Below, piece after piece: positions 18,729 through 59,592 of a DNA stretch of 64,000 nt (position 1 is its first letter; every line of letters begins with the position of its first letter). The DNA lies in the NCBI RefSeq assembly GCF_054482595.1, contig NZ_CM137008.1; one strand, 5' to 3'. A program made the position numbers and the translations under genes. The notes under the pieces were generated by a model. It had not been told where the DNA came from. It saw nothing but the letters and a program-made list of their open reading frames with translations, and made no database searches.

Positions 18729-19913
18729 TTAACTGGCTTTAATTTCTCCATGTGGTACGACAACCCAATCAATATGGTTTTGCGTATAAATCTTGGTTGA
18801 CTTGGAGTCGCTGTGCGCCATTCGTGCTTGCGGATCGATACCTTGCTGATCGAAAAGATACGCTGCTAATGCTCTAATTTCGTGAAAGGTTGGTCTTTCA
18901 TCTATCGGTAGATTGTCGCATAAACCTAGCTTGTCACGTGTGGCTGAAAACGACCGGCTCAAATAGTCCGGTGCAACTTGAGTAGGGTGTGAAACCTCTT
19001 TGCTGCGTTTAACCTGCCGTTCAGGGATCCTGTGAACGACAAACGGACTGGCCACATTATCTCGGCTATCATCAATTATTCGTTTCAACTCTTCACCAAT
19101 CGGTATTGCAACGTGTGATGCCTCTTTTTTTTGCACTTTTTGCCTGTGGATGTAAAGCGTCCCATATATGCCATTTTGTGGTTGTTCGAACCAGACACAT
19201 CCACATATACCGTCTTTAGGTTCGCGAATTGAGTAACGGATTCGCGATACTTCGAGTCGTGCATGTGTAGTCTGCAATGCTAGGTCCATTGCTGTTCTTA
19301 ACCATGGTGCAGCGGCCTGCCTGATAGCTATAAAATGCTCGAGTGACAGGCGCCGTCTTTTCTTCTCATCAGTCCTACGCATTTTTTTTCTGATGGCCGG
19401 GTTATCCAGCATTAGTGATTCATCGACCGCATAAGAGAACAACTTTTTAAGGAAGCTGACCTTTCTGTTCTGCACATTTGCGGATGCGCAGGCATGATAT
19501 TTATTGATGTAGGTATTAACGTGTTCAAGTGCAATATCGCATGCTGGAACATTTACGAAAAACGCTTTTACGCGTAGAGCGTCATTTTTCCAGTCATCTA
19601 AGGTGCTCTGGGAAGGACGTTCGTCTTCGATAATCCGGGTCATTATGTGATCAACATGTTCAGCAAATGGTTTTGCTTCTCCGATAACACCGCCAGATTC
19701 TCTAATAAGATTATCTACTGATGGAGATAATTCTGGTCGCATCCTCAGGTTGTACTCTCTGGCGATTGCAATGGCTATTGCCCTATCCTTACCTATATTT
19801 TTCTTCTTTCCGGTAATAAGTGTGAATTTATAAACACCTCGATCTTTATCAAAAATCAGATAATCAGGAAGATGTCTGTATTCTTTTTTACGTGGCCTTG
19901 CCGCCATGGTCAC
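18729..19913 (-). CDS. int: tyrosine site-specific integrase
   Basis: The 394-aa ORF has a C-terminal HEIR ... HSDSKSTKIY catalytic signature. It is adjacent to attL. Confidence 0.93.
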   Translation of the reverse strand: MTMAARPRKKEYRHLPDYLIFDKDRGVYKFTLITGKKKNIGKDRAIAIAIAREYNLRMRPELSPSVDNLIRESGGVIGEAKPFAEHVDHIMTRIIEDERPSQSTLDDWKNDALRVKAFFVNVPACDIALEHVNTYINKYHACASANVQNRKVSFLKKLFSYAVDESLMLDNPAIRKKMRRTDEKKRRRLSLEHFIAIRQAAAPWLRTAMDLALQTTHARLEVSRIRYSIREPKDGICGCVWFEQPQNGIYGTLYIHRQKVQKKEASHVAIPIGEELKRIIDDSRDNVASPFVVHRIPERQVKRSKEVSHPTQVAPDYLSRSFSATRDKLGLCDNLPIDERPTFHEIRALAAYLFDQQGIDPQARMAHSDSKSTKIYTQNHIDWVVVPHGEIKAS

Positions 19914-20396: not shown

Positions 20397-20598
20397 TTTT
20401 TATTCTCCGGTGCTTTCGGCATTACTGCCCAGTGGGTAATATTGACGTTTTCAAGGTCCCCGACCTGAAATGTCCACTGCCATTCTCCGGTTTCTTTTTG
20501 CCCCCAATGTGTACCAGAGAGAACGCCAGCCAATCAGCCAGCCTTCTCCATTAGCATCAAATAACAGAACACTTTCATGTCTGTTTTGTAAAAAGGAC

Positions 20599-20706
20599 GG
20601 TACCAGCCGGAAGCAAGGGTACAAGCTGGTACCTCCAAGACTACACACAGCATAAAGTTGTGGTGCCGGGTGCCTCCCGGTGCCTGGCGAAGGTTGCACA
20701 CCAGGC
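20599..20706 (+). other. GC-rich cluster of three consecutive hairpins (possible leader or ncRNA)
   Basis: Hairpin A pairs GGTACCAGC (20599-20607) with GCTGGTACC (20625-20633). Hairpin B pairs GGTGCCGGG (20662-20670) with CCCGGTGCC (20676-20684); its two G-U pairs are valid only on the + strand. Hairpin C pairs GCCTGG (20682-20687) with CCAGGC (20701-20706). Confidence 0.4.
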
Positions 20707-20920
20707 GGGTGGGTATCCACAGAAGGTCGACTGTCAGCCTCAACCTTTACCCGCGTGCGCTGAGCCGCATTCACCACAACGCTAAGGATTCTCTCTGGTT
20801 GAAAATACTTAGCTGTTATGTGCCTGCTTTTAGCCACATCAGGCGAGGTGGACCTAGTTATTCCCCAACAACAAGGATTTGGTTATTATGTAACCCTCCC
20901 CAACAACGATAAGGATTTAT

Positions 20921-21010
20921 ATGGAACGATGTGTAGATAAGTATGAGGAGAGGCATGTGCCGTTAAGGCAAAAGCCTCCAGTTCCTCCAAAACCACCCAA
21001 GGAAAACTGA
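20921..21010 (+). CDS. small ORF, 29 aa: MERCVDKYEERHVPLRQKPPVPPKPPKEN
   Basis: An AAGGA Shine-Dalgarno lies 5 nt upstream. The stop is 7 nt before the start of the 2-TM gene. The proline-rich tail is shared with two downstream small ORFs. Confidence 0.55.
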   Translation: MERCVDKYEERHVPLRQKPPVPPKPPKEN

Positions 21011-21017
21011 GACTAAT

Positions 21018-21512
21018 ATGACCAGAGACGATTATAAATTTTATATTCACTACTCTTATGTATTGGAGAAGATGAATTACACGTTGTTAACTCGTATTGA
21101 TAAATTAATAACGTTGATGTTAATCGTTCTCGGTTTTTCAGTTTTCGCCCCGTACAGTAATTTATTTATTTTCGGTTTGTTTGTTGCCGTACTTTCGGTT
21201 CTTCAGTTGGTCTATCAGTTCGGCCAGGAGGCTGGGATGTCTAAAGAACAAGCGAGGCATTACAAAAGACTGCTGATTGAGTCTGATACTCTTTCTGAAG
21301 ATCAGTTGCAAGCTAGGTATTTAAAAATCCAAGATACCGATAGTAATCCATGGAAATCACTTGAACGAGCGGCTTTCATTCGGGCCTGCATTTTTGCTGG
21401 TGTTCCAACTAAGTACGATCTAACAACCAAAGAAAAATTTATTGCTTGGTGTGCGGGAGATCTACCTCTAGAGAATGAACTAACGGATATTAATGATGAC
21501 CAACAAGCATAA
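21018..21512 (+). CDS. 164-aa two-transmembrane protein (SLATT-like topology)
   Basis: Two adjacent hydrophobic helices (LITLMLIVLGFSVFAPY and LFIFGLFVAVLSVLQLVY) are followed by a helical cytoplasmic tail. The gene is AT-rich and sits in the slot between xis and cI. Confidence 0.7.
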   Translation: MTRDDYKFYIHYSYVLEKMNYTLLTRIDKLITLMLIVLGFSVFAPYSNLFIFGLFVAVLSVLQLVYQFGQEAGMSKEQARHYKRLLIESDTLSEDQLQARYLKIQDTDSNPWKSLERAAFIRACIFAGVPTKYDLTTKEKFIAWCAGDLPLENELTDINDDQQA

Positions 21513-21567
21513 TCCAGTTCACGGACATGTACCTCCGAAGCCGAAACCACCGAAACCGAAGAAATGA
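21493..21567 (+). CDS. small ORF, 24 aa: MMTNKHNPVHGHVPPKPKPPKPKK
   Basis: It overlaps the last 20 nt of the 2-TM gene in another frame. I translated it by hand, because it is below the ORF-track cutoff. Confidence 0.45.
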   Translation: MMTNKHNPVHGHVPPKPKPPKPKK

Positions 21568-21586
21568 GACATAATAGGATTGGATA

Positions 21587-21655
21587 ATGAGTCGACCAAT
21601 AGAGCCTTTTCATATTCCACCTCGTCCCAGGCCACCAGATCCAGGCCCAAAGTGA
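21587..21655 (+). CDS. small ORF, 22 aa: MSRPIEPFHIPPRPRPPDPGPK
   Basis: An AGGA Shine-Dalgarno lies 7 nt upstream. An intrinsic terminator follows immediately. Confidence 0.5.
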   Translation: MSRPIEPFHIPPRPRPPDPGPK

Positions 21656-21679
21656 GGGTTACTGATTTTTAAAGAGCGA

Positions 21680-21702
21680 AGCGTCCGGTAGGGCGCTTTT
21701 TT
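21680..21702 (+). terminator. rho-independent terminator closing the small-ORF/2-TM operon
   Basis: The stem AGCGTCC-ggta-GGGCGCT is followed by TTTTTT. Confidence 0.75.
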
Positions 21703-21854
21703 GTTGCTAACGAATCATCTTGGACTTCATATGCCCCAGGCGGCTACTTCGTGAGCGTCCTGCCTGTTTGTTGTTTCTCTTGGGTACATTATGTATCTCA
21801 AAGGTACATTGTCAAGCATAAAAAAACCTGCCGAAGCAGGTTCATAAACATTGA

Positions 21855-22529
21855 TTAGGCTTTGATTTTGTATCTTCTTGGTTTTCCTGAGAAAATCACA
21901 GTACCAATTATAGAGCAATTACCGTTGATCTTAATGTAAGGCTCAGGCCAGTTTGGGTTTAACGCTTTGAGATAACGCTGTGTCCCATCTTCTATCAACC
22001 TTTTGAAGGTGGTTTCACCTGTATCGTGCATCAATGCAATAACGTCGTCACCGTGGCAGGCAGGTACTTCAGGATCGACAAAAATCATGTCTCCCGGGCG
22101 GTACTCATCAATCATTGAATCACCTATCACCCGCAAGATATAAGTCATTTCCCCACAGGGTACAGGGCAGGGATACGTTTCTGCTGTGCTCAAATCAACC
22201 TCAGAATATCCAACTTCTTTCCATGCTCCGGCCTGTACCCATGATATGACAGGGACTAATGTGATTTGTTTATTAGTGATTGAAACATCAGGTTTTTTTG
22301 TGATGTTCGTTGTCTGGTGTTCTTGATCGAGCCATCCGACAGGCAGGTCGAAACATTTTTCGATGTGTCGTGCCATGCTGTCACCGATATTTTTAGTAGC
22401 ACCATCTCCCATAAACCTGCTGGTTTGGGTTGGCTCGCGATCAATCATAGTGGCAAAGGAAGAATTCCCGCCAACACCATCTCTCAGTTTTCTGGCGTTA
22501 GACCGCCGGATGTCATGGATTGTTTTCAT
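21855..22529 (-). CDS. CI-type prophage repressor (HTH plus S24 LexA-like peptidase)
   Basis: The 224-aa ORF has an N-terminal HTH. The C-terminal region has GDSM serine and FKRL lysine motifs. It is divergent from a cro-like gene. Confidence 0.9.
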   Translation of the reverse strand: MKTIHDIRRSNARKLRDGVGGNSSFATMIDREPTQTSRFMGDGATKNIGDSMARHIEKCFDLPVGWLDQEHQTTNITKKPDVSITNKQITLVPVISWVQAGAWKEVGYSEVDLSTAETYPCPVPCGEMTYILRVIGDSMIDEYRPGDMIFVDPEVPACHGDDVIALMHDTGETTFKRLIEDGTQRYLKALNPNWPEPYIKINGNCSIIGTVIFSGKPRRYKIKA

Positions 22530-22619
22530 AACGAAATTAAAACCCTTGTACCGTTAAGGTACAAGTATCTTGAAGGTTCATTTTAATCATGTAATATGTA
22601 TACCGGAGGTACATATTGT

Positions 22620-55705: not shown

Positions 55706-55762
55706 GGGATTTTTGGTCGGCACGAGAGGATTTGAACCTCCGACCCCCGACACCCCATGACG
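55706..55762. repeat. attR: 57-bp repeat forming the 3' part of the intact proL
   Basis: It is identical to 16229-16285. Confidence 0.92.
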
Positions 55763-55790
55763 GTGCGCTACCAGGCTGCGCTACGTGCCG
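55714..55790 (-). tRNA. proL: tRNA-Pro (anticodon GGG)
   Basis: The reverse complement reads CGGCACGTAGCGCAGCCTGGTAGCGCACCGTCATGGGGTGTCGGGGGTCGGAGGTTCAAATCCTCTCGTGCCGACCA. It folds by hand into a cloverleaf, with anticodon loop AUGGGGU and a terminal CCA. Confidence 0.93.

Positions 55791-59199: not shown

Positions 59200-59592
<393 letters not shown>

Follow-up and report, generated by a model that had tools for sequence, protein, structure and literature searches.

The 64,000-nucleotide stretch of NCBI RefSeq assembly GCF_054482595.1 (contig NZ_CM137008.1) analysed here, hereafter the window, carries an E. coli lambdoid prophage in which a gene for a protein with two transmembrane (TM) helices is flanked by three short proline-rich open reading frames (ORFs), ORF1 upstream and ORF2 and ORF3 downstream. 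The conservation and substitution patterns of homologous loci demonstrate that these mini-ORFs are real genes, evolving under purifying selection and strictly associated with the family of the 2-TM protein. The whole is best read as a conserved multi-cistron accessory cassette (a moron) of Enterobacterales lambdoid prophages, which lies in the slot of sieB, antisense within the leftward early operon. Prophage exclusion-type morons with a small membrane protein are already known; the novelty lies in the conserved micropeptide partners, a strongly conserved family of about 21-35 residues missed by all the public annotations inspected.

A preliminary description of the window, made from the sequence alone, had given the coordinates and translations of the three mini-ORFs, which proved exact (Table 1), and its spacings were all correct. 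Shine-Dalgarno sites precede ORF1 (AAGGA, 5 nt upstream) and ORF3 (AGGA, 7 nt upstream), the ORF1 stop stands 7 nt ahead of the ATG of the 2-TM gene, and ORF2 starts within the 3' end of this gene, with an overlap of 20 nt with its stop. All cassette micropeptides share the core H-x-P-P-x-P-x-P-P, which from its sequence is expected to adopt a polyproline-II helix between basic residues, with prolines i, i+3 and i+6 on one face. The stretches coding for the motif in the three ORFs have just 18-19 of 33 nt in common and use mixed proline codons; the motif DNA is therefore not a repeat, as had been argued from the synonymous proline codons, and an origin of the motif by DNA repetition was rejected. 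The six frames of the window contain the pattern H-[VILMA]-P ... [RK]-P ... P three times, always in the cassette, against a mean of 0.13 in shuffled sequence. As this pattern was drawn up with the sequences already in view, it is the comparison with other loci that decides.

Homologues of the 2-TM protein comprised 72 close ones in Enterobacterales and, at E<=0.001 among 1.8 billion proteins, 157 cluster representatives; a scan of genome contigs yielded three loci only. About 80 loci were fetched for a comparison of their flanks, giving 59 distinct cassettes with both flanks. An upstream proline-rich ORF of the ORF1 kind (U-type) was present in 58 of these 59 and a downstream one of the ORF2 and ORF3 kind (D-type) in all of them. 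Mini-ORFs disrupted beside a maintained 2-TM gene, the situation which the preliminary description had named as fatal to its proposal, were thus not encountered in 58 of the 59 cassettes. A single separate D-type ORF is found in 23 cassettes, whereas 31 have two and 3 have three; in the remaining two cassettes the D-type ORF is fused to the 2-TM gene. The frame of the mini-ORFs, counted from that of the 2-TM gene, is 0, 1 or 2 depending on the phage, and nearly all of them possess an ATG and a Shine-Dalgarno site (62 distinct cassettes). ORF2 is kept in all close relatives; in E. cloacae the loss of a stop codon prolongs the 2-TM frame over ORF2, whose own frame is intact.

Selection on the peptides is apparent from the substitutions. 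In the PIEPFH subtype, to which ORF3 belongs, pooled pairwise substitution counts over 14 distinct nucleotide versions gave a pN (nonsynonymous) of 0.17 and a pS (synonymous) of 0.62, that is, a dN/dS of about 0.15; the ratio is about 0.13 in the IPNH subtype, and U-type ORFs have a pN of 0.32 versus a pS of 0.80. The third codon position of the mini-ORFs varies 2.5-3 times more than the first two, a pattern shared by the 2-TM gene. The conservation at the peptide level that had been proposed from the window thus extends across homologous loci, whatever the frame. The sequence M-[ST]-[RK]-P-I-E-P-F-H-[VI]-P-P is nearly invariant in cassettes whose 2-TM proteins are merely 55-64% identical to that of the window. 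In the D-type alignment the histidine and the five prolines of H-x-P-P-x-P-x-P-P are invariant, and conservation reaches outside the proline run (invariant His, PIEPF and YEE[RK] stretches).

The association with the 2-TM family also appears when the search starts from the peptide. A DNA pattern coding for H[VIM]PP[KRHQ]PRPP had 52 matches in 2.9 million viral contigs, among which 41 lie within about 600 nt of a 2-TM gene of the family, the other 11 being junk frames in high-GC DNA. Among more distant members, relatives at 45% and 39% identity (P0073, P0076 and P0079) keep both U-type and D-type ORFs, and those at 27-34% identity (P0084, P0094, P0128, P0144 and P0159) keep a small upstream ORF whose proline-rich basic tail ends about 10-23 nt 5' of the 2-TM start.

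It is hardly credible, given this pattern, that the mini-ORFs are not genes, whether they are taken for ORFs arisen by chance, for remnants of a C-terminal tail that was frameshifted or for a side effect of constraint acting on an RNA or on the opposite strand. Such an origin would suit very short ORFs which have no annotation in any of the public records inspected, where the 2-TM gene alone is annotated, as 'hypothetical protein', and it finds some support in the lineage with a downstream unit fused to the 2-TM gene and in the conserved non-coding elements flanking the cassette. It does not account for the low dN/dS accompanied by third-position variation, nor for peptides that persist whichever of the three frames they occupy relative to the 2-TM gene and that have an ATG and a Shine-Dalgarno site of their own; moreover, the upstream unit cannot be a C-terminal relic, and the motif is nearly exclusive to the cassette context. 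On the evidence of frame, dN/dS and motif context, a non-genic origin appears effectively refuted. Annotation of the 2-TM gene itself is uneven: in E. coli 50EVA (L001), where the region is 99.9% identical, the NCBI pipeline annotated a 91-aa C-terminal fragment only; records of other strains have all 164 aa of the frame. The cassette of E. coli UMNK88 (NC_017641) is likewise 99.9% identical to that of the window.

Table 1. Features of the cassette, its slot and the surrounding prophage (window positions)
Feature	Position	Strand	Description
ORF1, U-type micropeptide	20921-21010	plus	MERCVDKYEERHVPLRQKPPVPPKPPKEN; 29 aa, 7 Pro (24%), net charge +2
2-TM gene	21018-21512	plus	164 aa, two TM helices, C-terminal helical domain of ~95 aa
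ORF2, D-type micropeptide	21493-21567	plus	MMTNKHNPVHGHVPPKPKPPKPKK; 24 aa, 7 Pro, net charge +6
ORF3, D-type micropeptide	21587-21655	plus	MSRPIEPFHIPPRPRPPDPGPK; 22 aa, 9 Pro, net charge +2; PIEPFH[VI]PP subtype
sieB-type leader of the slot	20817-20920	plus	conserved; precedes ORF1
Inverted repeat, left arm	20890-20898		GTAACCCTC; with the right arm, brackets the cargo
Inverted repeat, right arm	21654-21662		GAGGGTTAC; overlaps the ORF3 stop codon
Intrinsic terminator, operon end	21678-21706	plus	9-pair stem and 4-nt loop (21678-21699), then T-run
Promoter-like TTGACA-16-CATAAT	21815-21788	minus	11/12 consensus matches
Integrase gene	18729-19913	minus	
LexA-family repressor gene	21855-22529	minus	ymfK in the annotation of near-identical genomes
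cro-like gene	start at 22596		

Judging from the stop and start spacings across relatives, the four protein-coding cistrons are tightly coupled in translation, which agrees with the single operon proposed at the outset. Of 22 distinct U-type forms, 17 have TGA as their stop, mostly inside TGAGG(T) and 7-9 nt ahead of the 2-TM ATG, so that a terminating ribosome sits on the ribosome-binding site of the 2-TM gene. The first D-type ORF starts from 28 nt before to 16 nt after the 2-TM stop. A programmed frameshift or readthrough from the 2-TM gene into the first downstream peptide is unlikely, as the relative frame may be 0, 1 or 2 and the peptides have their own starts. D-type units are fused to one another in several phages, and in Pectobacterium a D-type peptide is fused in frame to the C-terminus of the 2-TM protein (...AGDLPTEKESKMAKPPVDGHIPPRPRPPAPPKAQN), in three genomic contexts. 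This fusion is a physical link between a D-type peptide and the 2-TM protein.

The position of ORF1 raises the question of whether the peptides matter through the act of their translation, as proline-stall or arrest cistrons (dependent on elongation factor P, EF-P, or on a ligand of the tunnel) gating the synthesis of the 2-TM protein or the fate of the mRNA. A ribosome paused on the prolines or the stop of ORF1 would cover the 2-TM ribosome-binding site, the ORF1-type stop being located within its Shine-Dalgarno sequence, and one at the last stop codon would cover the adjoining right arm of the inverted repeat (Table 1). The upstream ORF, with its proline cluster, is also the most deeply conserved partner, down to 27-34% identity. 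PPP, PPD, PPN and PPG, which are EF-P-dependent stalling motifs, occur in many versions of the peptides, and a peptide of 21-35 aa is short enough to fit whole in the ribosomal exit tunnel. Conversely, only a terminator follows the downstream ORFs, conservation extends to residues far from the proline run, fusions of D-type units with one another and with the 2-TM protein are tolerated, and D-type stops are ordinary (28 TAA, 9 TGA, 4 TAG). The absence of bias among these stops also led to the rejection of an arrest specific to release factor 2. We regard translation as such as a rather unlikely explanation of the peptides on the present sequence evidence. The stalling-sensor idea of the preliminary description gains from ORF1, whose stop lies inside the 2-TM Shine-Dalgarno site, and loses from the downstream ORFs, behind which there is no gene to control.

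The 2-TM protein has hydrophobic helices at residues ~30-46 and ~49-66. Its AlphaFold2 (AF2) model is entirely helical (pLDDT 78), with a long hairpin made of helices 3-42 and 48-88 followed by four short helices. The protein matches PHROG 6315, a family of unknown function, and has no match in Pfam at E<=10. More broadly, the four cassette products retrieved nothing from Pfam, PADLOC or NCBIfam and only families of unknown function from PHROGs; in particular, the window protein has no SLATT match in NCBIfam. Among its relatives, 47 of 126 match NCBIfam SLATT_4 weakly (E<=0.1, best E 8.6e-7) and 14 match SLATT_1, and UniRef labels some family members SLATT. In a fold search of BFVD, five of the top eight proteins were SLATT proteins, with a probability up to 0.97, yet with E values of 0.1-0.6 and a TM-score of about 0.5; searches of the PDB returned generic helical bundles only. 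Together these profile and model comparisons suggest that the 2-TM protein is remotely SLATT-like rather than a demonstrated member, and the likeness to SLATT proteins put forward from the window is plausible to this extent. Homology of the family with SieB was rejected (hhalign probability 0.2% and 0.4% versus lambda and Hafnia SieB).

The limits of the cassette are given by PhiR29_1, a phage with other cargo, which is homologous to the window up to 20913 and again from 21664. The cassette (20914-21663) consequently consists of exactly ORF1, the 2-TM gene, ORF2 and ORF3, and the leader and terminator are part of the slot. Between this shared leader and terminator the 2-TM gene and the mini-ORFs stand alone, with no partner gene of a conflict system. 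The GC content is 0.41 in the cassette versus 0.51 in the window. Of 5426 complete E. coli genomes, 50 have the cassette, each in a single copy.

The leader, of about 100 nt, is more conserved than every coding part among 21 diverse loci. A hairpin (GCCTG 20822-20826 / CAGGC 20840-20844) is followed in it by a pair of direct repeats (CCCCAACAAC..AAGGATT, located at 20863-20879 and 20898-20917). The Shine-Dalgarno site of ORF1 is part of the second repeat, and the two repeats vary in concert from phage to phage. The leader aligns, hairpin and direct repeats included, with the region 5' of sieB in lambda and in a Hafnia phage. The unit thus stands behind a leader of exclusion genes, in line with the slot that had been assigned to it. 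In Kati and SfIV, in F1055 and in PhiR29_1 this leader is followed by cargo genes of other, unrelated kinds. The cargo of the slot is varied, including SieB, a 144-aa protein, an 83-aa protein and a protein with paired C-x-x-C motifs near its C-terminus, by eye a possible zinc ribbon; alternative cargo was seen at loci of PhiR29_1 (L075), Kati and SfIV (L090/L091), F1055 (L092), SfV (L074, with orf33 on the minus strand) and Hafnia Pocitis76 (L089). From these leader alignments the slot looks like a hotspot for exclusion-type genes that may be mined by its leader sequence.

Each direct repeat of the leader has an AAGGA motif, a pair that resembles CsrA sites, which is an idea only. A phage gene of the CsrA family is located directly downstream of a distant family member (P0094), on the opposite strand (L145, 2123-2302), a curious neighbour alongside the paired AAGGA motifs of the slot leader.

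The cargo is also bracketed by an inverted repeat. Its arms are 9 nt long in the window, where their pairing is weak taken alone, and the positionally equivalent arms are 11-16 nt long elsewhere and 26 nt in PhiR29_1, with compensatory changes between phages. In general form, the left arm, AATCTGGATATCCCC(AACAAC), lies directly 5' of the first ribosome-binding site and the right arm is (GTTGTT)GGGGATATCCAGATT, which begins a few nt past the stop of the last cistron in most cassettes whose downstream sequence was inspected by eye. The repeat encloses a different cargo gene in PhiR29_1 (L075, 1806-1831 and 2360-2385) and is found at many other loci. It could serve in closure of the mRNA from 5' to 3' end, as a processing site in the antisense early transcript or as a joint for the exchange of cargo. 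Beyond it, the intrinsic terminator reported earlier was recovered as a hairpin followed by a T-run (Table 1).

On the minus strand, the promoter-like site is directly preceded by the terminator of the repressor gene (21843-21824) and is a candidate for the leftward early promoter, from which transcription would cross the cassette in antisense. An N-like gene, situated between the cassette and the repressor gene of a related phage, leads us together with the promoter-like site to infer that leftward early transcription takes this antisense course. A boxA-like element (CGCTCTTTAAAAA) was noticed by eye on the minus strand at ~21668-21680, overlapping the cassette terminator; combined with the promoter-like site it would suggest antiterminated antisense readthrough upon induction. 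The Rfam scan had no match inside the cassette, on which ground an RNA-element explanation of the cassette was discarded, and gave a sub-threshold match to STnc100 upstream, on the minus strand (20587-20810, 39.9 bits for a gathering score of 47, E 9e-7, full model length). This STnc100-like stretch, which transcription in the leftward early direction would reach right after the slot, is common to about half of the complete E. coli genomes.

From these elements and by analogy with SieB we propose, as a tentative explanation to which we give somewhat less than an even chance, that the cassette is an exclusion or abortive-infection module in which the 2-TM protein works as membrane effector, the micropeptides are cognate partners acting at the cytoplasmic domain of this protein and ORF1 meters its synthesis. 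In the lysogen, the cassette would be expressed from the sieB-type leader and act in superinfection exclusion or abortive infection; expression in the lysogen and a role in exclusion are suggested by SieB of P22, a protein that the prophage expresses and whose activity is under the control of both Esc, a second product, and an antisense RNA (PMC10883804, PMC12197685, PMC7067206). To translate the 2-TM gene, ribosomes would first have to pass the proline cluster of ORF1 and to terminate over the ribosome-binding site of that gene; ORF1 would in addition set the amount of 2-TM protein. The micropeptides, made in fixed proportion, would dock on the C-terminal cytoplasmic domain of the 2-TM protein, which would act as the membrane effector, and hold or tune its activity. 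Once the resident prophage is induced, collision with the antisense transcription of the leftward early operon would shut the cassette down.

Several results weigh against this proposal. The scan of the plus strand found no consensus sigma-70 promoter from which a lysogen could express the cassette; TTCCCC-17-TATTAT in the leader is a weak candidate by eye. The near-invariance of PIEPFH[VI]PP beside such diverged 2-TM proteins would be explained by a conserved host target at least as well as by a phage partner in co-evolution. A chromosomal clade of Salmonella (P0219, 28% identity), adjacent to a sopE-like gene, is devoid of such ORFs, and the 2-TM fold consequently does not need them. The Pectobacterium fusion still has the D-type start codon, so that the free peptide could still be made, and in its AF2 model the linker has a pLDDT <50 and the tail of ~67, with no confident docking of the tail. 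Finally, PADLOC models of known defence systems had no match, and the individually tabulated SLATT matches reach 11.8-19.1 bits versus curated cut-offs of 41-55.

Some of these observations would also suit a lysogenic conversion function unrelated to phage exclusion (membrane or stress physiology, interaction with the host, or control of the resident prophage itself, in its induction or its lysis timing), in which the peptides would still be partners of the 2-TM protein. The functions of morons in such slots vary, no defence model was matched, the cassette is in so few complete E. coli genomes, and the chromosomal Salmonella homologue adjoins an effector gene of the sopE kind. The slot and its leader are, conversely, those of sieB, the weak affinity with SLATT points to conflict systems, and the other cargo at this position is variable as in a defence hotspot. 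We judge such a conversion function unlikely and retain the proposed exclusion module, in the tentative terms given above.

Elsewhere in the window, a tRNA-Pro(GGG) gene (55714-55790) and an L25 ribosomal-protein leader (59506-59531), on the minus strand, mark host DNA and probably the right border of the prophage. No connection was found between this tRNA-Pro gene and the proline-rich ORFs.

The partnership is unusual, micropeptides being associated with a SLATT-like membrane protein at the classic location of the exclusion gene sieB. Should the module prove to exclude phages, polyproline-II micropeptides would be the regulators or co-effectors of a defence system, a type of component that was not found in the defence-system literature searched. 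The tight coupling and the proline runs offer a testable link between translation capacity, or EF-P, and a prophage membrane effector. The sieB leader, the terminator and the inverted repeats appear to form a cargo-swapping unit which could help in mining further exclusion genes. The statement of the preliminary description that no such system was described still holds, the full-text literature searched giving no account of these peptides or of this architecture.

In composition the cassette peptides resemble the proline-rich antimicrobial peptides (AMPs) apidaecin, oncocin and Bac7, being likewise short and basic, with 24-41% proline. A proline content >=25% and a net charge >=+1 are two of four criteria listed for proline-rich AMPs (PMC11678341), and the cassette peptides have these values, ORF1 being borderline with 24% Pro. 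Both groups also possess a P-x-P-R-P-P-x-P core preceded by an aromatic residue or His and an aliphatic residue, though the core of the cassette peptides is shifted by one residue in register versus the Y-[IL]-P-x-P-R-P-P of the AMPs, and the C-terminal HPRL of apidaecin and the YLP of oncocin are absent. The AMPs are secreted by insects and mammals, whereas the cassette peptides are made by a prophage inside the bacterium. The D-type profile scored 15 known proline-rich AMPs between -15 and +7 bits (formaecin-1 had no score); these scores were equalled by 5-199 of 300 composition-preserving shuffles, by 5-60% of them for most, and P-x-P-R-P-P-x-P alone aligned. Homology with these AMPs was rejected on that account, and the oncocin and apidaecin likeness initially pointed out does not go beyond composition.

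These comparisons bear on the idea that the micropeptides are themselves effectors, phage-encoded analogues of these AMPs made inside the cell and blocking the ribosome (exit tunnel or release factors) or DnaK, with the 2-TM protein as immunity, sequestering or release factor. Their proline content, their net charge of +2 to +6 and the core in common with apidaecins and oncocin would suit this role, as would their strong conservation across diverged 2-TM proteins, suggesting a conserved host target, and a copy number of one to three, as in arms-race genes. It is opposed by profile scores of at most 7 bits, at shuffle level for most AMPs, and by the missing HPRL and YLP motifs. Acidic tails end most U-type peptides, the exit tunnel would be scarcely accessible to a peptide that is attached to a membrane protein, and a lysogen would suffer from steady expression of such effectors. 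We find it doubtful, from what the sequences offer, that the micropeptides act in this way. It would be equally doubtful to see in the cassette a new exclusion or abortive-infection system combining a SLATT-like protein with phage-made, intracellular, ribosome-directed proline-rich peptides, acting in trans like apidaecin or oncocin or in cis by arrest of termination or elongation, which would bring the principle of the proline-rich AMPs into the genomes of bacteria and phages.

With leader or arrest peptides and couplings of the mok/hok type, the cassette shares an ORF with consecutive prolines that ends on the ribosome-binding site of a membrane-protein gene and the likely presence of an antisense transcript. 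It differs from them in that the ORF1-type sequence is conserved over its whole length and that paralogous peptides follow the gene; a short ORF directly upstream and coupled, as expected of a leader peptide, is found in ORF1 only, ORF2 and ORF3 having no downstream gene. The 2-TM protein, with 164 aa, is also unlike a small toxin of <60 aa.

SLATT effectors of CBASS, of reverse-transcriptase defence systems and of others have, as the 2-TM protein, two adjacent TM helices extended into a helical cytoplasmic part. The cassette has no nucleotide-signalling or reverse-transcriptase partner, its partners being the micropeptides.

The comparison with SieB of lambda and P22 involves location as well as design. 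There is no sequence relationship between SieB and the 2-TM protein (hhalign probability <1%, lambda and Hafnia), the sieB loci are devoid of separate proline-rich mini-ORFs, and Esc is an internal in-frame product, whereas the cassette micropeptides are separate genes. The C-terminus of lambda SieB (L093, 683-1237; ...YNIEIKPRPISK) shows a short tail of proline and basic residues, maybe by coincidence. The sieB locus nonetheless occupies the same position as the cassette: close to the repressor gene, it lies within the leftward early operon on the plus strand, behind the same leader with its hairpin and two direct repeats. Like the 2-TM protein, SieB is small and belongs to the inner membrane, with a pair of hydrophobic helices at its N-terminus and a C-terminal domain in the cytoplasm, and the modulation of its activity in P22 by the smaller product Esc and an antisense RNA (PMC12197685) recalls the small partners and the antisense transcript proposed here for the cassette.

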